Both the position numbers and the translations under genes were made by a program. 64,000 nucleotides of DNA from Oscillospiraceae bacterium (lineage in GTDB: Bacteria; Bacillota; Clostridia; Oscillospirales; Oscillospiraceae), in NCBI GenBank assembly GCA_021771635.1, contig JAETOQ010000006.1:1908-65907 (forward strand). The letters are read 5' to 3'. Numbering within the stretch: the stretch's first letter is position 1; every line of letters begins with the position of its first letter. Below, one piece after another: positions 1 through 40,703 of this stretch. The notes under the pieces were generated by a model. That model worked only from the letters and a program-made list of their open reading frames with translations, was not told the DNA's origin and did not search any database.

Positions 1-1
1 C

Positions 2-727
2 ATTATGGCCGGTCCCTGCTCCGTGGAATCCGAGGAACAGGTGGTGGCCATTGCCAAGGCCGTCAAGGCCAGCGGCGCCACCATGCTCCGCGGCGGCGCC
101 TTCAAGCCCCGCACCTCCCCCTACTCCTTCCAGGGCCTGGGCGCCGTGGGCCTGGAGTACCTGAAGGTGGCCCGTCAGGAGACCGGCCTGCCCATCGTCA
201 CCGAGCTGATGGACCTGAGCCAGCTGCCTCTGTTCAAGGATGTGGACGTGATCCAGATCGGCGCCCGGAACATGCAGAACTTCGATCTTTTGAAAGCCGT
301 GGGCCATCAGGAGAAGCCCGTGATGATCAAGCGGGGCATGTCCGCCACCTATGAGGAGTGGCTCATGAGCGCCGAGTATGTCATGGCCGGCGGCAACGAG
401 AACGTCATCCTCTGTGAGCGCGGCATCCGCACCTTCGAGTCCTACACCCGCAACACCCTGGACCTGGCGGCCATCCCCGTCCTGCGGAAGCTGACCCATC
501 TGCCCATCATCATCGACCCCAGCCACGCCACCGGCAAGAGCTGGCTGGTGGAGCCTCTGGCCATGGGCGCCGTAGCCACCGGCTGCGACGGCTTGCAGAT
601 TGAGGTCCACAACGACCCCGCCCACGCCCTGTGCGACGGTCCCCAGTCCCTGAAGCCCGAGGTGTTCGCCCCCCTGGCCAAGAAACTGCTGAAGCTTCAT
701 GAAATGATGAAGACTCTGGAGGATTGA
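2..727 (+). CDS. aroF: DAHP synthase (3-deoxy-7-phosphoheptulonate synthase, class I-beta), N-terminus cut by window edge
   Basis: Frame is open to base 2. Motifs [30 protein letters not shown] and IIIDPSH are typical of I-beta DAHPS. First gene of an aro operon. Confidence 0.9.
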
Positions 728-732
728 CTTCC

Positions 733-1569
733 ATGAATGTTGGTATTGTCGGCCTGGGCCTGATCGGCGGCTCCATGGCCAAGAGCATCAAAGCCCGCAC
801 AGCCCACACCGTCTGGGGAGTGGATCTGGATCAGGAGACGATGACCATGGCCCGGATGTGCGGCGCCATCGACGCGCCTCTGACGGATGAAAACCTGTCC
901 CAGTGCGATCTGATCCTGGTGGCGATCCGCCCCGGCGCCGCCATCGAATGGGTCCGCCGCCACGCGGACGCCATCGCCCAGTCCGCCATCCTGGTGGACC
1001 TGTGCGGTGTCAAGCGGGTGGTGGTGGCGGGCATCGCCCCCATCGCCGAGCAGCACGGCTTCGCCTACATCGGCGGCCATCCCATGGCGGGCCGTGAGCG
1101 GGGCGGCTTCACCGCTGCCACCGACAGCCTGTATGTGGGAGCCTCTATGATCCTGACGCCTGACAAACGGACGGACATGCAGCTGCTGGAAACCCTGAAG
1201 GACTTCTTCCTGGACATCGGCTTTGCCGGTCTGACCTTCTCCGATCCGGAGGAGCATGACCGCATCATCGCCTTCACCTCCCAGCTGGCCCACATCGTGT
1301 CCAGCTCCTATATCAAGTCCCCGGAGGCCCAGCGCCGCCGCGGCTTCTCCGCCGGCAGCTTCCAGGACATGACCCGTGTCGCCCGGCTGGACGAGGACAT
1401 GTGGACGGAGCTGTTTTTGGATGACGCGGACTATCTGACCTGTGAACTGGAGGAGATCATCCGCCACCTGACGGAATATCAGGAGGTCCTGAAGGCCAGA
1501 GATGCGGAAAAGCTCCGGGCCCTGCTCAAGGACGGCCGGGAGAAAAAAGCCGCCGCCGGAGGGAATTAA
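733..1569 (+). CDS. tyrA: prephenate dehydrogenase
   Basis: Rossmann motif GIVGLGLIGGSMAKS and IGGHPMAG. ATG 733 follows the aroF stop (725-727); TTG 724 is an alternative start. Confidence 0.85.
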   Translation: MNVGIVGLGLIGGSMAKSIKARTAHTVWGVDLDQETMTMARMCGAIDAPLTDENLSQCDLILVAIRPGAAIEWVRRHADAIAQSAILVDLCGVKRVVVAGIAPIAEQHGFAYIGGHPMAGRERGGFTAATDSLYVGASMILTPDKRTDMQLLETLKDFFLDIGFAGLTFSDPEEHDRIIAFTSQLAHIVSSSYIKSPEAQRRRGFSAGSFQDMTRVARLDEDMWTELFLDDADYLTCELEEIIRHLTEYQEVLKARDAEKLRALLKDGREKKAAAGGN

Positions 1570-1646
1570 AGGGGAGGGCCCGTACTCTCCCGGCGGGGCA
1601 GGGCGTCCCGCCCTTCGGAAAGCATATCTGCTATCTGCTAACTCCT

Positions 1647-1809
1647 AAGGCAGCACCGCACAATTCGGCAAAAGCGAATGGCCAGAAAATTTTTGTCAGA
1701 AAAAGGCGCGAAAACGCAGGAATACTTTGCGTATTTCAAGTTTTCGCAACGCATTTATGGCGAAAATTTTCGATCATACGCCGCAGGCGCAATTGTGCTG
1801 TGATGCCTT
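1647..1809 (+). repeat. Family A MITE-like palindromic repeat, copy 1 of 2
   Basis: 163-bp imperfect long hairpin. Termini AAGGCAGCACCGCACAATT and AATTGTGCTGTGATGCCTT are inverted repeats. A closely similar copy lies at 18756-18913. Confidence 0.85.
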
Positions 1810-1831
1810 CATGGTAATGAGGGATCTTCTT

Positions 1832-2902
1832 ATGTTCAACTCCATTCAAACCATCCAGGTCCGCACCTCCCCCGCCTATGCTGTCTCCATCGGCCCCGGC
1901 CTGCTGCGCACCTGCGGGCAGCGCCTGCGGGACCTGCTGGGTGCCTGCCATGTGGCGGTCATCACCGACAGCACCGTGGCGCCCCTGTACCTGGGCGTCG
2001 TGACCGGCAGTCTGCAGACGGCGGGCTTTGCCGTCAGTTCCTACGTATTTCCCGCCGGGGAGACCCACAAGAATTTTGACACGCTCTCCGGCATTCTGGA
2101 ATTCCTGGCGGAGGAGCGCCTGACCCGCACGGACTGCGTCATCGCCCTGGGCGGCGGCGTCACCGGCGATATGGCGGGCTTTGCCGCCGCCGTGTATCTC
2201 CGGGGCATCCGCTGCGTGCAGCTGCCCACCACGCTGCTCAGTGCCGTGGATTCCTCCGTGGGCGGCAAGACCGCCATTGACCTGAAAGCCGGGAAAAACC
2301 TGGCTGGTTCCTTCCGGCAGCCCGTCGCCGTCCTGTGCGACACAGACTGCCTTGCCTCCCTGCCCGCCGGCATCTTTGCCGACGGCGCCGCCGAGGCCAT
2401 CAAAACCGGCGTGTTGAGCGACGAGCACCTGTTCTCCCTGTTTGAGGACGGCACCCTGACCACCGCCCCCGGCTCTGTCATCGCCCAGTGCGTGGCCTAC
2501 AAGGCCGGCGTGGTGGAGCGGGACGAAAAGGAGCAGAACGAGCGCCGCCTCCTGAACCTGGGCCACACGGTGGGCCACGCCATCGAAACGTGCAGCGGCT
2601 ACACCATTCCCCACGGCCACGCCGTGGCGGCGGGACTTGCCATCATCGCCCGGTCCGCGGAAAAGCTGGGCTGGACGGACGCGCCCATCGCGGACCGCAT
2701 CGCCGCCTGCCTCCAAAAGAACGGCCTGCCCACCGGCACGGAATACGGCGCCGCCGAGCTGGCCCACGCCGCCTCCGCAGACAAAAAGCGGACCGGCGGA
2801 GACATCACCCTGGTGATCCCCAGGCGCATCGGCCTGTGTGAGCTGAAAAAGGTGCCGGTAGCGGAGCTGCTGCCTGTGATCCAGGCGGGATTGGAGGGCT
2901 GA
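1832..2902 (+). CDS. aroB: 3-dehydroquinate synthase
   Basis: Motifs GGGVTGDMAGFAAA and LPTTLLSAVDSSVGGKTAI. ATG 1832 (MFNSIQ) has a GAGGGA RBS. The longer ORF from 1727 reads through repeat A1 and is rejected. Confidence 0.9.
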   Translation: MFNSIQTIQVRTSPAYAVSIGPGLLRTCGQRLRDLLGACHVAVITDSTVAPLYLGVVTGSLQTAGFAVSSYVFPAGETHKNFDTLSGILEFLAEERLTRTDCVIALGGGVTGDMAGFAAAVYLRGIRCVQLPTTLLSAVDSSVGGKTAIDLKAGKNLAGSFRQPVAVLCDTDCLASLPAGIFADGAAEAIKTGVLSDEHLFSLFEDGTLTTAPGSVIAQCVAYKAGVVERDEKEQNERRLLNLGHTVGHAIETCSGYTIPHGHAVAAGLAIIARSAEKLGWTDAPIADRIAACLQKNGLPTGTEYGAAELAHAASADKKRTGGDITLVIPRRIGLCELKKVPVAELLPVIQAGLEG

Positions 2903-2903
2903 C

Positions 2904-4226
2904 ATGGATGTACGTATCATTCCCCGCCCCCTTTCCGGCACCGTCACCCCTCCCCCCAGCAAGTCCATGGCCCACCGCCTGATCATTGCCGCCGCCCTGG
3001 CCAAGGGGACCAGCACCATCCACAATGTGGCCCTCTCCCAGGACATCGAAGCCACCCTCCGGTGCATGGAGGCCCTGGGCGGCCGGTGGGAGCGTCCGGC
3101 CGCGGACACCCTCCGCGTCACCGGTATTGGCGGCGGATCCCGGCAGTTTGAGACGCTCCCCCGCTTTGACTGCGGAGAATCCGGCTCCACCCTGCGTTTT
3201 CTGATTCCCATCGCCCTGGCGGTGGCGGGAGGCGGCGTGTTCACCGGCCGCGGACGGCTGATGGAGCGGCCTCAAAAGCCCTACTTTGACCTGTTTGACG
3301 AAAAGGGGATCTCCTACACGCTGGAAAGCGGCGTGCTCACGGTCCGGGGGCGGCTGACCCCCGGCGAGTTCCGCCTCCCCGGCAACGTGTCCAGCCAATT
3401 CTTTACCGGACTGCTGTATGCCCTTCCCCTGCTGGACGGGCCATCCGCCATTGTCAGCACCACGGCCCTGGAGTCCGCCGACTACATCACCATGACGCGG
3501 GAAGCCATGCGGACCGCCGGTGTCTCCGTGACCGCGGGGTGGGCCCCGCCCCGCTTTCAGGTGTCCCCCTCGGCTTACCAAGCCTTTGACGGCGCGGTGG
3601 AGGCCGATTGGTCCCAGGCCGGGTTCTGGTACGCCGCCCAGGGCATCGGAAGCCCCCTTACCATCGCGGGCATGAATCGGTCCTCCGTCCAGGGGGACCG
3701 GGAGATCCTGGTCTACGGAGAGCTCCTCCGGGGAGAGGGTCTCCGGGGCGGTGTCACCGTGCCGGTCCTGGGTCCCGCCGGGGAAACCGCAGCTCCGCCG
3801 CCTGAGCGGCCGGGCTGGAGCACGCCCTGCGTGGGCAGTGTCAGTCTGGACATTGCCCGCTGTCCCGACCTGGCGCCGCCTCTGGCGGCCTGGGGGGCGC
3901 TGCTGAACGGCTCTTTGTACCTGAAAAACGCCGCCCGGCTCCGCATCAAGGAGAGCGACCGGCTGGCCACCATCACCGCTGCCCTGAAGGCCCTGGGGGC
4001 CGAGGTATATGAGGAGCCGGACCGGCTGACCATCGTCGGCAGGCCATCTCTCCCCGGCGGAACGGTGAACAGCGCCAACGACCACCGCATCGCCATGATG
4101 GCGGCCATCGCCGCCACCGGCTGCACGGGACCTGTGACGATCCTGGGGGCGGAATGCGTCAGAAAATCCTACCCGGACTTCTGGGAGGTCTACGAATCCC
4201 TGGGAGGTGAGATCCATGTCCTCTGA
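2904..4226 (+). CDS. aroA: EPSP synthase (3-phosphoshikimate 1-carboxyvinyltransferase)
   Basis: PPSKSMAHR and KESDR motifs, about 440 aa. Starts 1 nt after the aroB stop. Confidence 0.9.
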   Translation: MDVRIIPRPLSGTVTPPPSKSMAHRLIIAAALAKGTSTIHNVALSQDIEATLRCMEALGGRWERPAADTLRVTGIGGGSRQFETLPRFDCGESGSTLRFLIPIALAVAGGGVFTGRGRLMERPQKPYFDLFDEKGISYTLESGVLTVRGRLTPGEFRLPGNVSSQFFTGLLYALPLLDGPSAIVSTTALESADYITMTREAMRTAGVSVTAGWAPPRFQVSPSAYQAFDGAVEADWSQAGFWYAAQGIGSPLTIAGMNRSSVQGDREILVYGELLRGEGLRGGVTVPVLGPAGETAAPPPERPGWSTPCVGSVSLDIARCPDLAPPLAAWGALLNGSLYLKNAARLRIKESDRLATITAALKALGAEVYEEPDRLTIVGRPSLPGGTVNSANDHRIAMMAAIAATGCTGPVTILGAECVRKSYPDFWEVYESLGGEIHVL

Positions 4227-5307
4227 ATTCGGAAAAATTCTGAAGGTATCGGTATTCGGCCAGTCCCACGGCCGGGCCATCGGTGTCACGATGGATGGCC
4301 TGCCTGCCGGGGAGGCTGTCGATCTGGACGAGCTGAACGCCTTCCTGGACCGCCGGAAGCCGGGCAAAAGCCCTCTATCCACCCAGCGGCGGGAGGCGGA
4401 CGCCCCCATCTTCCTCTCCGGCTTAGAAAATGGCGTCACCTGCGGCGCACCCCTGTGCGCCATCATCGAAAACAGCGACCAGCACTCCTCGGATTACAGC
4501 GAATTGGCCGACAAGCCCCGGCCCTCCCACGCGGACTACACCGCCTGGGCAAAGTGGGGCGGCCATGCGGACATGCGGGGCGGCGGGCACTTCTCCGGGC
4601 GGCTGACAGCCCCCCTGTGCATCGCCGGCGGCATTGCCAGACAGATCCTGGCCCGCCGGGGCGTCCATGTGGGCGCCCATCTGGCAGCCGTTGGCACGGA
4701 GGACGACGCGGCCTTCCCCCTGCACCCCACGAAGGAATTGTTTGATTCCGTCGCCGCCAAGGCGTTTCCCGTTCTGGACGACCAGGCGGGGGCACGGATG
4801 CAGGCCCTGATCCTGGAGGCCCGGCAGAATCAGGATTCCGTGGGCGGCATCATCGAGTGCGCCGCCACGGGTATGCCCGCCGGACTGGGAGATCCCATGT
4901 TCGACGGGATTGAAAACCGGCTGGCAGCGGCGCTCTTCGGCATCCCCGCCGTCAAGGGCGTGGAATTCGGCCTGGGCTTTGGCTCCTCCCGCCTCCACGG
5001 CTCCGAAAACAACGACCCGTTCACTTTGGAGCACGGCGCCATCGTCACGGCGTCCAACCGCTCCGGCGGTATTTTGGGCGGCATCACTACCGGCATGCCC
5101 GTCACGCTCCGCGTGGCCGTCAAGCCCACGCCGTCCATCAGCCGTCCCCAGCAAACGGTCAGCCTGTCCGCCGGGGAGCCGGCGGAACTGGTCATCCATG
5201 GCCGGCACGACCCCTGCATCGCCCACCGGGCGGTCCCCGTGGTGGAGGCCGTCACCGCTGTTGTTTTATTAGATCTATTATTGGAGGGAAATCATGGAAC
5301 TTTCTGA
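4216..5307 (+). CDS. aroC: chorismate synthase
   Basis: FGQSHG signature and SGGILGGITTG. ATG 4216 is preceded by a GGGAGG RBS and overlaps the aroA end. Confidence 0.9.
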   Translation: MSSEFGKILKVSVFGQSHGRAIGVTMDGLPAGEAVDLDELNAFLDRRKPGKSPLSTQRREADAPIFLSGLENGVTCGAPLCAIIENSDQHSSDYSELADKPRPSHADYTAWAKWGGHADMRGGGHFSGRLTAPLCIAGGIARQILARRGVHVGAHLAAVGTEDDAAFPLHPTKELFDSVAAKAFPVLDDQAGARMQALILEARQNQDSVGGIIECAATGMPAGLGDPMFDGIENRLAAALFGIPAVKGVEFGLGFGSSRLHGSENNDPFTLEHGAIVTASNRSGGILGGITTGMPVTLRVAVKPTPSISRPQQTVSLSAGEPAELVIHGRHDPCIAHRAVPVVEAVTAVVLLDLLLEGNHGTF

Positions 5308-6430
5308 GATCCGCACGAAAATCGACGCTGTGGACGACCAGCTCCTGCGGCTGTTTCTGGAACGGATGAGTCTGGCCGAGGAAGTGGCCGCCTACAAAAA
5401 CGAGCATCACCTGCCCATTTTGAACAAGGAGCGGGAGCGCGCCGTCCTGGCGAAGGTCACAGAGAAGTCCGGCGAGAAGGAGCGCTACGCCTACCACCTC
5501 TTCTCCACCCTGTTCGAGCTGGCCCGCTCCCGCCAGGCGGAGCTGATCTCCGCCCCCACCAAGGTGGAGGCGAAGGTGAAGGCGTCTCTTGCCGCTGGCG
5601 GCGAGATCTTTCCCCAGACGGGCCTTGTGGCCTGCCAGGGCGTGGAGGGTGCCAACTCCCAGGTGGCCTGCGACCGCCTGCTGCCCCGGGGCAATGTGGT
5701 CTATGTCAAGACCTTTGAGGCCGTGGTCTCCGCCGTGGAATCCGGCTTCTGCAAATTTGGCGTGCTGCCCATTGAGAACAGTTCCAACGGCTCCGTCCGG
5801 GCGGTGTACGAGCTGCTGCTGGAGCACAACCTCTCCATCGTCCGCTCCACCCGCCTGTGCATCCGTCACGAACTGCTGACGCTGCCCGGTGTGAAGCTGT
5901 CTGACATCACGGAGATCTACTCCCACGAGCAGGCCATCGGCCAGTGCAGCAAGTTTCTGAACAGCCTGAACGGCATCCGTGTCATTCCCTGCGACAACAC
6001 CGCCATGGCCGCCAAAATGGTGGCCGAGAGCGGCAACCGCCACGCCGCCGCCATCTCCTCCCACCCCTGTGCGGCGCTGTACGGTCTGGAGTGCATCGAC
6101 GACCGCATCCAGAACAGTGACAACAACTACACCCGCTTTATCTGCGTCACCAAGGATCCGGCCATCTACGCCGGTGCCAACCGCATCAGCCTGATCATCG
6201 CCTTTGAAAACCGTCCCGGCGCTCTGTATGAACTGCTCTCCAAGCTGGCGGCCCTGGACATCAACCTGACGAAGCTGGAATCCTGCCCTGTTGTGGGCAG
6301 CGACTTTGAGTTCATCTTCTTCCTGGAGCTGGACGCCTCCGTGCAGGACCCCAGCGTACTTGCCATGCTGGAGGAGATGGAGCGCAGCTGCGCCCAGTTC
6401 CAGTTCCTGGGCAACTACGCGGAAGTCTGA
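5294..6430 (+). CDS. pheA: bifunctional chorismate mutase / prephenate dehydratase with ACT domain
   Basis: N-terminal CM helix (IDAVDDQLLRLFLERM), PDT core (NYTRFICV) and C-terminal ACT-like ENRPGALYELL. Confidence 0.85.
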   Translation: MELSEIRTKIDAVDDQLLRLFLERMSLAEEVAAYKNEHHLPILNKERERAVLAKVTEKSGEKERYAYHLFSTLFELARSRQAELISAPTKVEAKVKASLAAGGEIFPQTGLVACQGVEGANSQVACDRLLPRGNVVYVKTFEAVVSAVESGFCKFGVLPIENSSNGSVRAVYELLLEHNLSIVRSTRLCIRHELLTLPGVKLSDITEIYSHEQAIGQCSKFLNSLNGIRVIPCDNTAMAAKMVAESGNRHAAAISSHPCAALYGLECIDDRIQNSDNNYTRFICVTKDPAIYAGANRISLIIAFENRPGALYELLSKLAALDINLTKLESCPVVGSDFEFIFFLELDASVQDPSVLAMLEEMERSCAQFQFLGNYAEV

Positions 6431-32480: not shown

Positions 32481-34088
32481 TTATTCTGCCTCCATTTTCT
32501 CCACGGCGGCTCTCACAAATCCGTAAAACAGCGGGTGGGGCCGGTCCGGCCGGCTCTTGAACTCCGGATGGAACTGGGCGCCCACGAACCAGGGGTGGTC
32601 CGGCAGCTCCACGATCTCCACCAGACGGCCGTCGGGGGACAAACCCGCCAGAACCATGCCCTTTTCCTCCATCTCCGCCCGGAAATCGTTGCTGAACTCA
32701 TAGCGGTGGCGGTGGCGTTCGGAGATCTCCCTGGAGCCGTACAGTCCGGCGCTGCGGCTGCCCTCCGTCAGGACGCAGGGGTACTTTCCAAGCCGCATGG
32801 TGCCGCCCTTTTCCGTCACGTTTACCTGGTCCGGCATCAGATCGATGACCGGGTGCCGGGTAGACTCGGAAAATTCGGAGGAATTGGCGTCCTCATACCC
32901 CAGGACATGGCGGGCAAACTCAATGACCGCCATCTGCATCCCCAGGCAGATGCCGAAATAGGGGATGCGGTTCTCCCGGGCATAGCGAACGGCGCAGAGC
33001 ATGCCCTCGATGCCCCGGTCGCCGAAGCCGCCGGGCACCAGAACGCCGGCGCAGCCCGCCAGCCGCTCCGCCGCGTTGCCGTCGGTCAGGCCCTCGGAGT
33101 CGATCCAATCGATGTCCACGATGGCGTCGTTGGCGGTGCCGGCGTGGTTCAGAGACTCCACCACGGAGAGGTAGGCGTCATGGAGCTGGGTGTATTTGCC
33201 GACCAAAGCGATGCGGACCTTTTTGTGGGCGTTTTTCTCCCGCCTGACCATGGCGCTCCACTCCCGCAGGTCCGGCTGGTGGGTGATCAGCCCCAGCTTG
33301 CGGCAGACCGCCTCATCCAGTCCCTCCCTGGCCATCAGCAGGGGGACCTCATACAGCGTCTCCGCCGTGGTGTTCTGGATCACACAGTCCGGCTCCACAT
33401 TGCAGAAGAGGGCGATCTTCCGGCGGATATCCTCGGTGATGGGCTCGTCGCAGCGGCAGACCAGCACATCCGGCTGGATACCCAGGGACAGAAGTTCCTT
33501 CACAGAGTGCTGGGTGGGCTTGGACTTCAGCTCACCGGAGCCAGGGATCTGCACGATCAGGGGCACATGGATGAACACCACGTCCCCGTGGGGCCGCTCC
33601 GCGGCCACCTGGCGGATGGCCTCCAGGAAGGGCTGGGACTCGATGTCGCCCACAGTGCCGCCGATCTCGGAGATCACCACGTCCACATCCTCACCGGCCA
33701 TGGCGTAGATGCGGCTCTTGATCTCGTTGGTGATGTGGGGGATGATCTGGACCGTGGCGCCCAGATAGTCGCCCCGGCGCTCCCGATTCAGCACGGACCA
33801 CCAGATCTTGCCGGAGGAGATGGAGCTGTTGCCCGACAGGTCCTCGTCCACGAACCGCTCGTAATGGCCCAGGTCCAGGTCTGTCTCCGCGCCGTCGTCG
33901 GTGACGAAGACCTCTCCGTGCTGATAGGGGCTCATGGTGCCGGGGTCCACATTGATATAGGGATCGAATTTCTGGTTGCGCACCCGGACGCCCCGCTGTT
34001 TCAAAAGCCGTCCCAGAGACGCCGCGCAGATCCCCTTTCCCAACCCGGAGACCACGCCGCCGGTCACAAATACGAATTTTGTTGACAT
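32481..34088 (-). CDS. pyrG: CTP synthase
   Basis: [20 protein letters not shown]-terminus and the glutamine amidotransferase GICLGMQ; 535 aa. Confidence 0.95.
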
Positions 34089-34172
34089 ACTGACCTCACC
34101 TTACCTTTACACACAACAGTTTTCACCTGAAAAGGGTTTTGTACGCATAAAATGGACAAAACAGCGCCTTAT

Positions 34173-34358
34173 GAAAAACAAAAAAGCACCGCCGGACCAT
34201 TTTGCGGTGAAAAGTCCCAGCCTCTTTCGGGACTCTTCGCTGCGATCCGCGGTGTCGCTCGTCTGTTCGATTATCGCTCTGCGGCTCACGCCGCAAACCG
34301 CCGCCAAAGCGTTTCCAAAATACTTTTCCAATATATCACCCTCCATTTTCCTTGTCAA
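34173..34358 (-). promoter_or_regulatory. pyrG promoter plus leader with intrinsic terminator (candidate attenuator)
   Basis: On the minus strand: TTGACA (34353-34358), 17-nt spacer, TATATT (34330-34335). A leader hairpin CACCGC/GCGGTG followed by a T-run lies at 34173-34209, upstream of the pyrG ATG. Confidence 0.5.
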
Positions 34359-34504
34359 CGGGTCACTTTCGCCTGAAGCAGAAGAAATTCCCGCATTTCG
34401 CCCAAGTCCTGAACAGACCGCGAGGCAGTCGGTTTTGGGCATTTTCCCCGGCGGATTGTGGCGGATGCCAGACTCCTTTGGATTTATTTTGTAAAAAATG
34501 ACGA

Positions 34505-34533
34505 TTGACTTTATCCCTTTAAAGCTATATATT
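34505..34533 (+). promoter_or_regulatory. sigma-A type promoter of ABC importer operon 1
   Basis: TTGACT (34505-34510), 17-nt spacer, TATATT (34528-34533). Confidence 0.6.
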
Positions 34534-34580
34534 GTAAAAGCGAATCACAGACATCCAGATGGAGGAAAGGAGTTCCCGCC

Positions 34581-34688
34581 ATGCGTCACATGACTGCGTT
34601 GTCCCTGCGGCCCGCGACGGGCTCCTATTACTTTATGAAGGCCCGCCTTGCGGGCCGCTTTGCGTGCGTCAAAAGGCAGTCCGTCTGA
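34581..34688 (+). CDS. putative 35-codon leader peptide containing Tyr-Tyr-Phe
   Basis: AAAGGAG RBS 8 nt upstream of the ATG. Reads MRHMTALSLRPATGSYYFMKARLAGRFACVKRQSV*. The ORF runs through alternative hairpins ahead of a terminator. Not in the ORF track because it is under 60 aa. Confidence 0.35.
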   Translation: MRHMTALSLRPATGSYYFMKARLAGRFACVKRQSV

Positions 34689-34710
34689 AACACGACCGTT
34701 GTATGAAGAG

Positions 34711-34742
34711 CGGCCCTGTTCTCACGGACAGGGCTGTTTTTT
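34711..34742 (+). terminator. leader terminator upstream of SBP gene 1
   Basis: Stem CGGCCCTGT/ACAGGGCTG (one G-U) followed by TTTTTT. Its 5' arm overlaps AGCGGCCC, which can pair with GGGCCGCT at 34652-34659. Confidence 0.75.
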
Positions 34743-34782
34743 ATAGTGTCCTTGCAAATCATTACATAAGGAGATCTGAAAG

Positions 34783-35796
34783 ATGAAAAAGAAGCTGCTT
34801 GCATTGATCCTAGCGGGCGCCATGACTCTGAGCCTGGCCGCCTGCGGCGGCGCGAAGGATGAGCCCGCTCCCGCCGATACCACCGGCCCTGCCGAGACGC
34901 AGGAACCCGCTGGCGAGACCTATAAGGTCGGCATCTGCCAGCTGGTCCAGCATGACGCGCTGGACGCCGCCACCCAGGGCTTCATCGACGCGCTGAATGA
35001 GAAGCTGCCCGGCCAGGTGGAGATCGACAACCAGAACGCCTCCAACGACATCCCCATGTGCTCCACCATCGTCAACCAGTTCATTGCCGCTGATGTGGAC
35101 CTGATCATGTGCAATGCCACGCCCGCCCTGCAGGCTGCCGTGGCCGCCACCACCACCATCCCCATCCTGGGCACCTCCGTCACCGAGTACGGCGTGGCCC
35201 TGGGCATCAGCGACTTCTCCGGCACCGTGGGCGGCAACGTCTCCGGCACCTCCGACCTGGCTCCTCTGGACCAGCAGGCCGCTATGATCCAGGAGCTGTT
35301 CCCCGACGCCAAGAGCGTGGGCCTGATCTACTGTTCCGCCGAGGCGAACAGCCAGTATCAGGTGGACGCGGTCAAGGCCGAGCTGGAGAAGCTGGGCTAC
35401 ACCGCCACCCTGTACTCCTTCTCTGACTCCAACGACCTGGCCGCCGTCACCGAGAGCGCCGCTGCCGCTTCCGATGTGATCTATGTTCCCACCGACAACA
35501 CCGTTGCCGCCAACACCGGCATCATCGACAACATCTGCCGCCCCGCCGGTATCCCCGTGGTCGCCGGTGAGGAGGGCATCGTCAAGGGCTGCGGCTTGGC
35601 CGCCCTGTCCATCAGCTACTATGACATCGGCTACAAGACCGGCGAGATGGCCGCTCAGATCCTGACCGGCGAGGCTGATATCTCCACCATGCCCATCGAG
35701 TATGCACCTCAGTTCGTCAAGAAGTACAACGCTGAAATCTGCGAATCCCTGAACCTGACCATGCCCAGCGACTATGTCGCCGTGGAGACCGAATAA
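34783..35796 (+). CDS. ABC transporter substrate-binding lipoprotein (ABC_sub_bind / TrpX-like family)
   Basis: Lipobox LSLAAC. YKVGICQLVQHDALDAATQGF is typical of the PF04392-type SBPs. Confidence 0.8.
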   Translation: MKKKLLALILAGAMTLSLAACGGAKDEPAPADTTGPAETQEPAGETYKVGICQLVQHDALDAATQGFIDALNEKLPGQVEIDNQNASNDIPMCSTIVNQFIAADVDLIMCNATPALQAAVAATTTIPILGTSVTEYGVALGISDFSGTVGGNVSGTSDLAPLDQQAAMIQELFPDAKSVGLIYCSAEANSQYQVDAVKAELEKLGYTATLYSFSDSNDLAAVTESAAAASDVIYVPTDNTVAANTGIIDNICRPAGIPVVAGEEGIVKGCGLAALSISYYDIGYKTGEMAAQILTGEADISTMPIEYAPQFVKKYNAEICESLNLTMPSDYVAVETE

Positions 35797-36039: not shown

Positions 36040-36963
36040 ATGAATCCAATCGCGCTTCTCAACTCGCTTCCCGGCGCGGTCTCACAGGGACTGATCTGGG
36101 GCATCATGGCCATCGGTGTCTACCTCACCTATAAGATCCTGGACGTGGCCGATCTGACAGTGGACGGCACCATGTGCACGGGCGGCGCCGTGTTTATTAT
36201 GCTGACCATGGCCGGCTGGTCCATCCCCGCGGCGCTTCTGGCAGCCTTTGCCGCCGGTATGCTGGCAGGTCTCGCCACCGGCCTGCTGCACACCGCCTGC
36301 GGCATCCCCGCCATCCTGTCCGGTATTCTGACGCAGCTGGCCCTGTATTCCGTGAACCTGCGGATCATGGGCAAGTCCAACCAGCCCATCAACGCCAACA
36401 ACTATCACCTGCTGGTGTCCTCCCGGAATGTGAAGGTCCTGACCGTGGAGAACCCCATCCTGGTGGTGGGCGTTTTCTGTGTGGCGCTGATCGCCGTGCT
36501 GTACTGGTTCTTCGGCACGGAGCTGGGCTGCTCCCTCCGCTCCACCGGCTCCAACTCCGCCATGAGCCGGGCACAGGGCATCAACACCAACTTCACCACC
36601 GTGCTGGGCCTGATGCTCTCCAATGGCCTGGTGGCCCTGTCCTCCGCCCTGCTGAGCCAGTATCAGGGCTTTGCCGACATCAGCATGGGCCGCGGCGCCA
36701 TCGTCATCGGTCTGGCGGCGGTCATCATCGGCGACGTGGTCTTTGGCAAGATCTTTATCAACTTCGCCCTGCGGCTCCTCAGCGTGGTGTTCGGCTCCAT
36801 CATTTACTACGCCGTGTACTCCCTGGTCATCTGGCTGGGCATGAGCGGCGACGACATGAAGCTGATCACCTCCGTGATCGTGGCGCTGTTCCTGTCCATC
36901 CCCTACTGGAAGGGCAAGTATTTCAGCAAGCCCATCAAGAAAGGAGATGCGGCAAATGTTTGA
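36040..36963 (+). CDS. ABC transporter permease (TrpY-like, BPD_transp_2 type)
   Basis: 307-aa polytopic protein; paralogue of 40726-41664. Confidence 0.8.
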   Translation: MNPIALLNSLPGAVSQGLIWGIMAIGVYLTYKILDVADLTVDGTMCTGGAVFIMLTMAGWSIPAALLAAFAAGMLAGLATGLLHTACGIPAILSGILTQLALYSVNLRIMGKSNQPINANNYHLLVSSRNVKVLTVENPILVVGVFCVALIAVLYWFFGTELGCSLRSTGSNSAMSRAQGINTNFTTVLGLMLSNGLVALSSALLSQYQGFADISMGRGAIVIGLAAVIIGDVVFGKIFINFALRLLSVVFGSIIYYAVYSLVIWLGMSGDDMKLITSVIVALFLSIPYWKGKYFSKPIKKGDAANV

Positions 36964-37750
36964 GGTCAAGAATATCCATAAGACATTCAACGCGGGCACG
37001 GTCAACGAAAAGCACGCCCTGCGGGGCGTGAGCCTGACGCTGAACGACGGCGACTTCGTCACGGTCATCGGCGGCAACGGCGCCGGCAAGTCCACCCTGT
37101 TGAACGCCGTGGCCGGCGTGTGGGCCGTGGACAGCGGCAGCATCTCCATCGACGGCAGAGACCTGACCCACATGCCGGAACACAAGCGGGCCCGGTACAT
37201 CGGCCGCGTGTTCCAGGATCCCATGCAGGGCACCGCCGCCACCATGCAGATCGAGGAAAACCTGGCCCTGGCCGCCCGCCGGGGCAAGCGCCGCACACTC
37301 CGCCCCGGCATCACCAAGGCGGAGCGGGCGGAGTATATCGAGCGGCTGAAAATTCTGGACCTGGGCCTGGAGGAGCGGCTGACCAGCAAGGTGGGCCTGC
37401 TCTCCGGCGGACAGCGCCAGGCGCTGACACTGCTGATGGCCACCCTGATCAAGCCCCAGCTGCTGCTGTTGGACGAACACACCGCCGCCCTGGATCCCAA
37501 GACCGCCGCAAAGGTGCTGGACGCCACGGACCTCCTGGTGTCCAAGGACCATTTGACGACACTCATGATCACCCACAACATGAAGGATGCCATTGCCCAT
37601 GGCAACCGGCTCATCATGATGTATGAGGGGCGCATCGTCATCGACGTCTCCGGTGAGGAGAAAAGGAAGCTGACCGTCCCCCAGCTGCTGGAGCTGTTCA
37701 ACAAGGTCAGCGGCAGTGACGAGGCAGACGACAAGCTGCTGCTCTCGTAA
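36956..37750 (+). CDS. ABC transporter ATP-binding protein (TrpZ-like)
   Basis: Walker A GGNGAGKST, LSGGQRQ and LLLLDEHTAALD. ATG 36956 follows an AAGGAG RBS. Confidence 0.9.
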   Translation: MFEVKNIHKTFNAGTVNEKHALRGVSLTLNDGDFVTVIGGNGAGKSTLLNAVAGVWAVDSGSISIDGRDLTHMPEHKRARYIGRVFQDPMQGTAATMQIEENLALAARRGKRRTLRPGITKAERAEYIERLKILDLGLEERLTSKVGLLSGGQRQALTLLMATLIKPQLLLLDEHTAALDPKTAAKVLDATDLLVSKDHLTTLMITHNMKDAIAHGNRLIMMYEGRIVIDVSGEEKRKLTVPQLLELFNKVSGSDEADDKLLLS

Positions 37751-38235: not shown

Positions 38236-38517
38236 CAATCAAATATAAAACCGATGAGCAAGAGGAGTAACCGGCTAGGGGACCTTTCAGAGAGCTGTGG
38301 ATGGTGGGATCACAGCAGAGAACTTTCCGGCGAATGGACTTGCGAGGGCAGCGCGAACGAGCAAACCGCTTCAGTAGCATATGACGGGGACCGCACCCGT
38401 TATCAGGGCGGCACGGATGAATGTCCGTGAAAGGAGCGGGCGCTATGCGTCAACTTGGGTGGTACCGCAGGATTTAAGTCTTGTCCCAACTTTGGGATAG
38501 GGCTTTTTATTTTTTTC
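38236..38517 (+). promoter_or_regulatory. T-box riboswitch leader, tryptophan specifier (UGG)
   Basis: GA/K-turn GAUGAG, AGUA, AG bay CAGAGAG, distal GGUGGGA. Specifier loop GAA-UGG-A-CUUGCGAG with UGG at 38335-38337. T-box TTGGGTGGTACCGCAGG at 38455-38471. Terminator at 38476-38517. Confidence 0.9.
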
Positions 38518-38817: not shown

Positions 38818-39819
38818 ATGAAAAACTTGAAGAAGATCACTTCCGCCGTTCTGGCGCTGACTCTGGCCCTCTCTCTGACCGCCTGCGGCGGCAAGACCGA
38901 GACTCCCGACACCCCCGATGAACCCGCCAAGATGTATAAGATCGGCATCTCCCAGTACGGCGAGCACGCCTCGCTGGACAACTGCCGGGAGGGCTTCCTC
39001 CAGGGTCTGGCCCAGGCCGGCCTTGTAGAAGACGTGGACTTTAAGGTGGATTACCAGAATGCCGGTTTTGATGACGCCATCGCCACCCAGATCGGCCAGA
39101 GCTTCTCCGCCGGGGATGTGGATCTGATGGTGGGCATCGCCACCCCCTCCGCCGTGGCCTGCTTCAACGCCGCGGAGGACAAGGATATCCCCGTGATCTT
39201 CACCGCCATCACCGATCCCGTCCAGGCCAAGCTGGATTCCGGCAACGTCACCGGGACCTCCGATAAGCTCCCCGTGGAGGCCCAGCTGGACCTGATCCGC
39301 CAGCTGCAGCCCAGCGCCAAGACCATCGGCATCATCTACACCACCAGCGAACCCAACTCCGTCTCCACCATCGCCGAGTACAAAGAGAAGGCCGGGGACT
39401 ACGGCTTTACCATCGATGCCATCGGCGTCACCGCCCAGTCCGAGGTCACCCAGGCCGCCGATACCCTGATCTCCCACGAGGTGGACTGCTTCTCCAACCT
39501 GACCGACAACAACGTGGTGGGCGTTCTTCCCGCCATTCTGGAAAAGACCGACGCCGCGGGGATCCCTGTGTACGGCTCTGAGGTGGAACAGGTCAAGATC
39601 GGCTGTGTGGCCTCCGCCGGCATCGATTACGTCCAGCTGGGCATCCAGACCGGCCTGATGGCCGCCAAGGTCCTCCGGGGAGAGGCCGCCTGCCAGGATA
39701 TCCCCTACGAGACCATCTCCGAATACGGCATCTATGTGAACTCCGACGCGCTGAACGCCCTGGGCATCGTCCTGCCGGAGGCCGTGGCGGAGAAAGCCAT
39801 TGAATCCGCTGATGCCTGA
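38818..39819 (+). CDS. ABC transporter substrate-binding lipoprotein (TrpX-like), paralogue 2
   Basis: Lipobox LSLTAC. YKIGISQYGEHASLDNCREGF resembles the SBP at 34783. Confidence 0.8.
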   Translation: MKNLKKITSAVLALTLALSLTACGGKTETPDTPDEPAKMYKIGISQYGEHASLDNCREGFLQGLAQAGLVEDVDFKVDYQNAGFDDAIATQIGQSFSAGDVDLMVGIATPSAVACFNAAEDKDIPVIFTAITDPVQAKLDSGNVTGTSDKLPVEAQLDLIRQLQPSAKTIGIIYTTSEPNSVSTIAEYKEKAGDYGFTIDAIGVTAQSEVTQAADTLISHEVDCFSNLTDNNVVGVLPAILEKTDAAGIPVYGSEVEQVKIGCVASAGIDYVQLGIQTGLMAAKVLRGEAACQDIPYETISEYGIYVNSDALNALGIVLPEAVAEKAIESADA

Positions 39820-39842: not shown

Positions 39843-40703
39843 ATGAAACTCGTCACCTACCGCCATGGAGACAGGGAGCTGGCAGGCGCCCTGACAGCGG
39901 ATATGGCCGCTGTTCTTCCCCTCCCCTACTCCGATATGAACGATCTGATCGGCTCCGCGTCCTTCACGGAACTGCTCTCCGCCGCACAAGCGGCGGAGAG
40001 CCGCGGCGCTTGTGTGCCCCTGTCCGAGGTGTCGTTGTGCGCCCCCATCCCCCGGCCCCGGCAGGATGTGATCTGCCTGGGCATCAACTACAAGGCCCAC
40101 GCCGATGAATCCACCCGGTATGACGCCTCCGCGTTCGGCGGCGAGCGTCCCGTTCCCATCTACTTCTCCAAGCGTGTCAGCGAGGCCGTGGCCCCGGAGG
40201 GCTTCATCGATAGCCACCCCGGCCTGGTCCAGCGGCTGGACTACGAGGCCGAGCTGGCCGTCATCATCGGGAGGGCCGCCCGGAATGTCAAAGCCGCCGA
40301 GGACCATATCTTCGGCTACACCGTTCTCAACGACGTCTCCGCCCGGCTGCTGCAGACCACCCATAAGCAGTGGTATTTCGGCAAGGGCCTGGACGGCTTC
40401 ACCCCCATGGGCCCCTGCATCGTCACGGCGGACGAGATCAGCTTTCCCCCGGCCCTGGCCATCTCCTCCCGCGTCAACGGCGAGCTGCGGCAGAACTCCA
40501 CCACAGACCTGCTGATTACCGGCATCGCGGAGATCATAGAGGAGCTGTCCTCCGGCATGACGCTGCTGCCCGGCACCATCATCGCCACCGGCACGCCCGC
40601 CGGTGTGGGCATGGGCTTTGATCCCCCAAAGTTCTTAAGCCCCGGCGACGTGGTGGAATGCACCATCGAGGGCATCGGCACCTTGCGGAACACGGTCCGC
40701 TGA
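39843..40703 (+). CDS. fumarylacetoacetate hydrolase (FAH) family protein
   Basis: LDYEAELAVIIG, GYTVLNDVSAR and GTPAGVG motifs of the FAH fold. Confidence 0.8.
   Translation: MKLVTYRHGDRELAGALTADMAAVLPLPYSDMNDLIGSASFTELLSAAQAAESRGACVPLSEVSLCAPIPRPRQDVICLGINYKAHADESTRYDASAFGGERPVPIYFSKRVSEAVAPEGFIDSHPGLVQRLDYEAELAVIIGRAARNVKAAEDHIFGYTVLNDVSARLLQTTHKQWYFGKGLDGFTPMGPCIVTADEISFPPALAISSRVNGELRQNSTTDLLITGIAEIIEELSSGMTLLPGTIIATGTPAGVGMGFDPPKFLSPGDVVECTIEGIGTLRNTVR

Follow-up and report, generated by a model that had tools for sequence, protein, structure and literature searches.

A probable tyrosine/phenylalanine leader-peptide attenuator upstream of an ABC importer operon in Oscillospiraceae

We analysed a stretch of 64,000 nucleotides from an Oscillospiraceae bacterium (contig JAETOQ010000006.1, positions 1,908 to 65,907). 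This whole stretch is called the window in the following, and positions refer to it unless a locus is named. The subject of this study is the leader in front of an ATP-binding cassette (ABC) importer operon of this gut Oscillibacter. The leader is most likely a classical ribosome-mediated transcription attenuator which senses charged tRNA-Tyr and tRNA-Phe and thereby controls a Tyr/Phe ABC importer. A preliminary description, made from the letters of the window alone, had proposed attenuation of the trp/pheA type for this site. This reading is now supported by a conserved open frame, by aromatic codons enriched next to a conserved hairpin, by complementary segments which can form alternative helices, by a terminator with covarying base pairs and by the linkage of the leader to genes connected with tyrosine and phenylalanine. 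The coordinates of the features are collected in Table 1.

Results

Conservation of the leader open reading frame

The preliminary description had named a 35-codon open reading frame (ORF) preceded by the Shine-Dalgarno sequence AAAGGAG at 8-nt spacing, and both are present in the window. Related leaders were collected in two ways. With BLAST, 36 further genomes of the genus were searched, and 12 of these contained a leader with the ORF, in addition to the genome of the window itself. A pattern of the hairpin region, scanned over one genome per prokaryote species, gave 84 matches. About 60 of these are found in Oscillibacter, Dysosmobacter and other Oscillospiraceae, including the cultured strains O. 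valericigenes Sjm18-20 and O. ruminantium GH1, and an orthologue of the binding-protein gene follows each Oscillospiraceae match, save one whose locus ends too early. For the remaining 25 matches, which belong to unrelated phyla, the binding-protein gene was not found downstream. In the genome of the window a search for a second copy of the importer-type leader found none. The family statistics given below refer to 60 distinct leaders, the alignment and the folding to 59 leaders.

The small ORF, its Shine-Dalgarno sequence, its start codon and its aromatic codons were kept throughout this collection, as could be seen from the alignment of orthologous leaders that the preliminary description had suggested. 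A Shine-Dalgarno sequence, which reads GAAAGGAG or GAGAGGAG in the family, and an in-frame start codon (59 ATG, one GTG) are present in 60 of 60 leaders. Between the start and the core not a single leader has a stop codon in the leader frame, whereas the other two frames are interrupted in 21 and 14 of the 60 leaders, respectively. The N-terminal part of the peptide occurs in ten lengths, each of them a multiple of three nucleotides, and its sequence can otherwise not be aligned. The C-terminal part is likewise variable; the ORF stops 13–28 codons past the core, at a median distance of 24 nt before the terminator core. As an example, the leader of O. valericigenes Sjm18-20 (locus L030) reads MRNNLSVAASFYYFTEVRFAGRNYRAQKLEKRLKD. 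Because the frame is kept while the N- and C-terminal sequences and lengths vary, the leader ORF appears from these comparisons to be a translated frame whose product sequence is unimportant.

Aromatic codons next to the hairpin

The three consecutive codons TAT TAC TTT noticed in the preliminary description are indeed in frame, and across the family aromatic codons are enriched beside segment 1. The codon located 8 nt before the hairpin is TTT in every leader; this was forced by the search pattern, yet the same codon is also present in all 13 leaders found with BLAST. At the three codons preceding the invariant TTT, Tyr or Phe is encoded in 27, 53 and 44 of the 60 leaders. Consequently, 124 of the 180 unforced positions (69%) are aromatic, compared to a genome-wide Tyr plus Phe frequency of 5.6%. 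Each leader has two to four aromatic codons within this four-codon window.

Alternative helices and terminator

The segments 1:2 and 2:3 as well as the 3:4 terminator with its U-run, as put forward in the preliminary description, could be located in the window. The sequences GGGCCGCT (34652-34659) and AGCGGCCC (34709-34716) are complementary. Segment 3 (34707-34716) lies within the 5' arm of the terminator, whose 3' arm has a run of six U residues (34737-34742) at its end. A simple terminator scan did not list this hairpin because in the extended stem the U-run is itself base-paired, with an A-rich tract further upstream. The fold of the whole leader has a free energy of -87.9 kcal/mol compared to -67.1 kcal/mol for shuffled sequences (z = -4.9), and none of 200 shuffles was as good.

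The consensus fold of the aligned leaders consists of the 7-bp hairpin and the terminator and nothing more. In the terminator ten pairs are altered on both sides, and the observed values were matched by 0 of 500 shuffles. The 2:3 pairing is formed in 92% of the cells of the alignment, compared to 35–63% when the partner was slid along the sequence. The variable positions of segment 3 are C or U and face a G in both partners, as would be expected of a strand that pairs in two ways.

A diverged leader, L143, was found via its binding protein. Here segment 1 reads GGUCUGC, segment 2 GCAGACC and the 5' arm of the terminator GGU(G)CUGC, so that all three segments are altered and both pairings are retained, while the peptide changes from KVRYAGR to QVCYADR. 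L143 thereby provides independent support for the alternative helices. Hairpin 1:2 is a candidate anti-antiterminator and possibly a pause hairpin as well.

Covariation in favour of a single ligand-binding fold, which the preliminary description had regarded as damaging to the attenuator reading, was not seen in the family. Nor did we find in these leaders a conserved multi-helix core of the riboswitch type; the hairpin 1:2 and the terminator are conserved and the rest is variable with an open frame.

In the genome of the window a near-repeat of segment 1 upstream of the control codons can give rise to a long hairpin, whose loop then contains the codons for Tyr-Tyr-Phe. This repeat is limited to the closest relatives (L002, L063, L099, L105, and L109), and the other family members are without it. 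A pairing of the aromatic-codon region with the terminator arm (CCGCUUU/AAAGCGG) was also considered and was rejected with a pairing probability of 0.013.

Orthologous loci and the substrate of the importer

As stated in the preliminary description an ABC importer is encoded downstream of the leader; with Pfam its genes were assigned to a binding protein (PF04392), a permease and an ATPase. Among the homologues of solved structure, CD0873 of C. difficile (6HNI, E 9e-55) is closest to this binding protein, followed by 3LFT and 3LKV. CD0873 binds tyrosine, 3LFT tryptophan and 3LKV phenylalanine (PMC6816091). Equivalents of Glu-263 and Tyr-279 of CD0873 are present in the binding protein of the window. 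As specificity markers these two residues were discarded; they occur in every relative examined, including the paralogue behind the Trp T-box, and do not discriminate.

We further examined an unbiased sample of 80 metagenomic loci, which were selected by the binding protein alone. The leader described here recurs in four of these loci. In five further groups there are aromatic mini-ORFs unrelated in sequence, after each of which a terminator is found. Such unrelated leader peptides read MLSRYSFFIFAFRFAGRYF.., ..AYSYFGFIQVCYADRYF.., ..GIYYYYFYATG.., MRQNSYAYYFTYARFYAGFFYD.., and ..RFSYAYFYFFTDG..; the stretch ..RFSYAYFYFF.. is likewise from these five groups. Other loci of the sample bear T-boxes. 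Locus L024, from a different family of this order, combines the conserved promoter with a T-box whose specifier is UAC (Tyr) and with a binding protein 70% identical to that of the window. The T-boxes of L132 (587-825) and L133 (585-822) have the specifier UUC (Phe) when read in the same register. Their specifier loop is GAA-UUC-C, in which a pyrimidine follows the codon instead of the usual purine, and in an alternative register the specifier would be UCC; therefore the Phe reading of these two T-boxes is probable and not certain. Orthologous loci with these T-boxes thus clearly respond to the charging of tRNA-Tyr or tRNA-Phe, and this is the signal required by the leader model.

The paralogous operon downstream in the window is preceded by a T-box (RF00230, 38245-38491) with the specifier UGG (Trp), which bears out the Trp T-box reported in the preliminary description. 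The binding protein of this operon (38818-39819) keeps the Glu and the Tyr connected with the tyrosine preference of CD0873 and is without the tryptophan-accommodating Gln of SP1069 (PMC6816091); a Trp specificity is therefore not obvious from these residues. A gene of the FAA-hydrolase family (39843-40703) also belongs to the Trp-T-box operon.

Ribosome position and proposed mechanism

The effect of the ribosome was modelled by masked folding. For each codon position the RNA downstream of the ribosome was folded, with transcripts ending just before the 3' arm of the terminator, and the specific 2:3 pairs were scored. An earlier score, which counted any upstream pairing of the 5' arm and allowed helices across the ribosome, was uninformative because the arm always finds a partner and because the upstream repeat pairs with segment 2 across the mask; it was replaced. 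With no ribosome, or with the A site at least 6 nt upstream of the last TTT, the modelled probability of the 2:3 helix was 0.03–0.09. It rose to 0.38–0.62 with the A site at 0 to +9 (footprint +9) or at -3 to +6 (footprint +12), and it was 0 when the ribosome covered segment 2. From this profile the last Phe codon, perhaps the preceding codon, would therefore form the 5' edge of the productive window.

We propose that transcription starts from the promoter at 34505-34533 and that the resulting leader of about 200 nt is translated from 34581. When charged tRNA is ample, the ribosome would reach the stop codon at 34686-34688, and segment 2 would be covered or paired again with segment 1; the terminator (34704-34743) would fold and RNA polymerase would halt in the U-run. 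When Tyr-tRNA or Phe-tRNA is scarce, the ribosome would stall at TAT-TAC-TTT (34626-34634). With the last control codon in the A site the leading edge of the ribosome would mask segment 1, and the freed segment 2 (34652-34661) would pair with positions 34707-34716 in the 5' arm of the terminator. Formation of the terminator would thus be blocked and the genes for the binding protein, the permease and the ATPase would be transcribed. If the leader is not translated at all, hairpin 1:2 would fold and transcription would terminate. The scheme presupposes ribosome stalling at the control codons and a kinetic order of folding, with hairpin 1:2 and the following U-rich stretch presumably serving as pause site, and the direction of regulation would be induction upon shortage of charged tRNA.

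Table 1. Positions of the importer leader, its parts and the genes that follow it in the window
Feature	Position	Strand	Details
Promoter block	34486..34540	+	-35 TTGACT 34505-34510; 17-nt spacer; -10 TATATT 34528-34533
Motifs within the promoter block			Palindrome CTTTAAAG between -35 and -10; ATTTTGTAAAAAAT upstream
Shine-Dalgarno sequence AAAGGAG	34566..34572	+	8 nt ahead of ATG 34581
Leader-peptide ORF, 35 codons	34581..34688	+	MRHMTALSLRPATGSYYFMKARLAGRFACVKRQSV, then stop; ORF list
Upstream near-repeat of segment 1, GCGGCCCGCGACGGGCUCC	34607..34625	+	Pairs with 34640-34658 in the minimum free energy fold
Control codons TAT TAC TTT (Tyr-Tyr-Phe)	34626..34634	+	In frame, read directly
Hairpin 1:2, GGCCCGC-CUU-GCGGGCC	34640..34656	+	Arms 34640-34646 / 34650-34656; consensus fold, 100% paired
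Segment 2, GGGCCGCUUU	34652..34661	+	Pairs with 34707-34716, up to 10 bp
Stop codon of the leader ORF	34686-34688	+	
Intrinsic terminator	34704..34743	+	18-bp stem 34704-34721 / 34726-34743, loop UCAC, -26.5 kcal/mol (RNAfold)
Substrate-binding lipoprotein, CD0873-like	34783..35796	+	PF04392, Pfam E 3e-55
ABC permease	36040..36963	+	PF02653, Pfam
ABC ATPase	36947..37750	+	PF00005, Pfam

Weighing of the attenuator against other explanations

Several observations weigh against the attenuator as described above. The first group concerns the aromatic codons. Their synonymous use is biased by position: at -3 TAT is used 29 times and TAC once, and at -1 TAC is used 27 times and TAT never, so that a constraint at the nucleotide level or shared ancestry must contribute. 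Aromatic codons are also enriched in the loop of the hairpin (52 of 60 leaders) and just after segment 2 (47 of 60), where stalling should favour termination. These extra positions, at +15 and +27, are not accounted for by the hairpin or by the control codons and may reflect a constraint on the RNA (a U-rich loop, a U-tract) or a role of the peptide. Furthermore, in the masked folding only the last Phe codon frees segment 2, joined by the preceding codon if a +12 footprint is assumed, and aromatic codons 6–9 nt further upstream are predicted not to free it; these earlier codons could act by delaying the ribosome.

The second group concerns the helices and the distribution of the leader. In the strict family the helices 1:2 and 2:3 are nearly invariant and so give complementarity and no covariation, and for hairpin 1:2 this invariance was partly imposed by the search pattern. 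Finally, 11 further congeners of our sample keep the promoter and the binding-protein gene without the leader ORF. The terminator alone, placed directly after the promoter, is kept in L009, L013, and L019. A leader ORF is absent from L005, L007, L010, L011, L016, L017, L020, and L021; that of L017 is apparently a decayed leader which has lost its start codon. In the congeners with the terminator only, constitutive termination should be expected unless it is relieved in another way.

We considered two alternatives in which the control codons would not act by tRNA shortage. First, the leader could encode an arrest peptide. The pattern [YF][YF]x0-1F..VR[YF]AGR[FY] would then act in the ribosomal tunnel and arrest the ribosome a few codons past the cluster, masking segment 1, and a ligand may modulate the arrest as in TnaC. 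For a peptide, the replacement of Tyr by Phe at a given position is a conservative exchange, aromatic residues recur in the loop codon and past segment 2 where stalling at a hungry codon is unproductive, and the modelled window of antitermination (A site 0 to +9) lies just past the aromatic cluster and not on most of it. However, the conserved KVRxAGR of the peptide coincides with the RNA hairpin and is accounted for by it: in L143 compensatory changes preserve the hairpin, and the peptide reads QVCYADR instead. Quite different aromatic peptides are encoded at other orthologous loci, and the T-boxes at orthologous loci answer to uncharged tRNA, which is the logic of the hungry codon. An importer induced by free Tyr or Phe would also be regulated in the wrong direction. 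We therefore regard an arrest-peptide sensor as quite improbable.

Second, the attenuator could be independent of translation, with a protein or a small molecule binding to the hairpin or the leader RNA and the ORF being incidental. The hairpin and the terminator are the most conserved parts of the RNA, and the position-biased synonymous codons hint at a constraint at the nucleotide level. This explanation is at odds with the Shine-Dalgarno sequence, the start codon and the open frame, which are kept in 60 of 60 leaders despite N-termini of ten lengths that cannot be aligned. It also finds no conserved multi-helix core and no Rfam match to rest on, and the unrelated leaders at orthologous loci share an aromatic ORF and a terminator alone. 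Its probability appears lower still than that of the arrest peptide, and attenuation by a translating ribosome that stalls on Tyr and Phe codons remains the preferred explanation.

Promoter and neighbouring genes

The promoter TTGACT-17-TATATT of the preliminary description was found again both by reading the sequence and with a promoter scan, in which it scored 10 of 12 matches. The promoter block around it (34486-34540) is 85–95% identical across the congeners, including those in which the leader differs, and it is retained ahead of the leader-peptide, the T-box and the leaderless versions of the operon. The combination of the promoter motifs, ATTTTGTAAAAAAT..TTGACTTTATCCCTTTAAAGCTATATATTG, occurs only once in this genome. 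The block may be an operator of some regulator.

A transcription factor acting on this block could even be the main control, the terminator merely setting a constant low read-through. The conservation of the block in front of all three versions of the operon, the uniqueness of its motif combination and the congeners that have the promoter without the leader ORF fit such a control. It would leave the conserved aromatic ORF and the 2:3 complementarity unexplained, and no regulator gene was identified. As a regulated promoter and an attenuator can act on one operon, for example on trp of E. coli, it is more an addition to the leader-peptide attenuator than a rival; as the main control of the operon we give it the least probability of all explanations considered.

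On the minus strand a strong divergent promoter (34330-34358; TTGACA-17-TATATT with TG, 11 of 12 matches) faces the gene for CTP synthase (32481-34088, minus strand). The leader of the CTP synthase gene contains an ORF of 111 codons (34107-34442, minus strand), for which Pfam gave no match.

A second leader at the aro operon

The genome was screened for mini-ORFs with codon clusters followed by terminators. This screen was crude and very noisy; among its 245 matches one leader, that of the aro operon, was convincing. This second leader rich in Tyr and Phe is located on the same contig (L193:1418-1522) about 490 bases before base 1 of the window. Its ORF reads MTMTNIARAAEYRYFSFTYFYGKAYFGLAESIRV up to the stop codon and includes the Tyr/Phe-rich stretch ..EYRYFSFTYFYGKAYFG... 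A terminator follows at about 1558-1590 of L193, so that the whole element (L193:1418-1590) extends from about 490 to 320 bases before the window. The operon behind it encodes, in this order, DAHP synthase, prephenate dehydrogenase (tyrA), aroB, aroA, aroC, chorismate mutase/prephenate dehydratase (pheA), and aroE-aroK, and it extends into the window (1-6430) and beyond. Another 24 genomes of the genus have this leader in conserved form, and in two other families of the order we found an ORF that is rich in aromatic codons and shares its core. Consequently, the organism appears to use Tyr/Phe leader peptides for both the synthesis and the uptake of these amino acids.

The promoter of the aro operon contains a similar CTTTAAAC-ATCTAAAG element. 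In a simple alignment test the overall likeness of the importer and the aro promoter was not significant (score 23; shuffles, mean 17.4 and maximum 28).

Aromatic residues recur at fixed sites of the importer leader, namely before the hairpin, in the loop codon and after the hairpin, and likewise in the leader of the aro operon. One might imagine from this that the nascent peptide contributes to an arrest of the ribosome in the narrow stretch in which it masks segment 1, as a hybrid of hungry-codon attenuator and arrest peptide, and that this hybrid together with a repressor at the promoter gives a two-tier Tyr/Phe regulon. In gut Oscillospiraceae such a regulon would span the importer as well as the DAHP synthase-tyrA-pheA operon. 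We consider this combination unlikely, if somewhat less so than an arrest peptide acting by itself.

Discussion

Novelty and meaning of the leader

Neither of the two leaders belongs to an Rfam family, and they have thus been overlooked by annotation pipelines. For the importer leader no relevant family was found at the gathering threshold or at E values up to 10, in keeping with the preliminary description, which had recognised no riboswitch class. The covariance models of the Phe_leader and of the Leu-phe leader did not match at the gathering threshold or at E values up to 10 either, and the T-box model RF00230 matched at 38245-38491 only and not in the importer leader. For the aro operon leader Rfam gave no match. 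The best match of the Rfam searches was ncS011 with 29 bits (threshold 48), which is essentially the terminator. Tyr/Phe leaders of Oscillospiraceae, or ones in front of PF04392 importers, were not found described in the literature searched.

The leader assigns a likely role, the uptake of Tyr and Phe induced by starvation, to a widespread and poorly characterised ABC importer of abundant gut Clostridia. It would also extend leader-peptide attenuation, which is deemed typical of Proteobacteria and Actinobacteria, to the uptake and biosynthesis of aromatic amino acids in Oscillospiraceae. The switching between T-box and leader peptide at orthologous loci is a clean natural case of the replacement of a sensor. 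With O. valericigenes Sjm18-20 and O. ruminantium GH1 there are cultured carriers in which the proposed mechanism is testable.

Comparison with known systems

Leader-peptide attenuation is classical in Proteobacteria and Actinobacteria. Like the E. coli leaders pheL-pheA, pheM-pheST (Rfam Phe_leader), trpL, hisL, leuL, and thrL, the importer leader has consecutive control codons in a short translated ORF, the alternative helices 1:2, 2:3, and 3:4 and an intrinsic terminator, and in both cases induction is expected when the cognate charged tRNA is scarce. In contrast to the E. coli leaders, with which it has no homology in sequence or structure, it is found in the phylum Bacillota (Oscillospiraceae), its control codons specify both Tyr and Phe, its ORF runs on for 13–28 codons past the control codons, and its target is an importer and not a biosynthetic or synthetase operon.

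The preliminary description had called this logic uncommon in Firmicutes, which is right but does not hold absolutely. His leaders have been predicted in the Bacillus cereus group (PMC2965389), His attenuators in Peptostreptococcaceae and Erysipelotrichales (PMC9413887) and a Leu/phe leader in Lactococcus lactis (RF01743; PMC2864571). These leaders belong to the same class of mechanism and the same phylum, and they too appear to replace T-boxes at orthologous loci; they differ from the importer leader in the amino acids sensed, in the target genes and in their unrelated sequences.

T-boxes in front of operons of the TrpX/CD0873 type, such as trpX of Streptococcus suis (PMC9382623) and the T-box at 38245-38491 of the window, control the same kind of operon, respond to the charging of an aromatic tRNA and act by read-through of a terminator. 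There the tRNA is bound directly, whereas the sensor proposed here is a ribosome that translates a mini-ORF. With TnaC and other arrest peptides the importer leader has in common that the position of a ribosome on a short translated leader would decide on the transcription of the operon. Those systems need a specific peptide, and TnaC in addition free tryptophan and Rho; here the terminator is intrinsic, and apart from its aromatic cluster the peptide shows no conservation that would be independent of the RNA structure. The importer leader is thus very probably a genuine and conserved element, which represents a new sequence family of a well-known mechanism.

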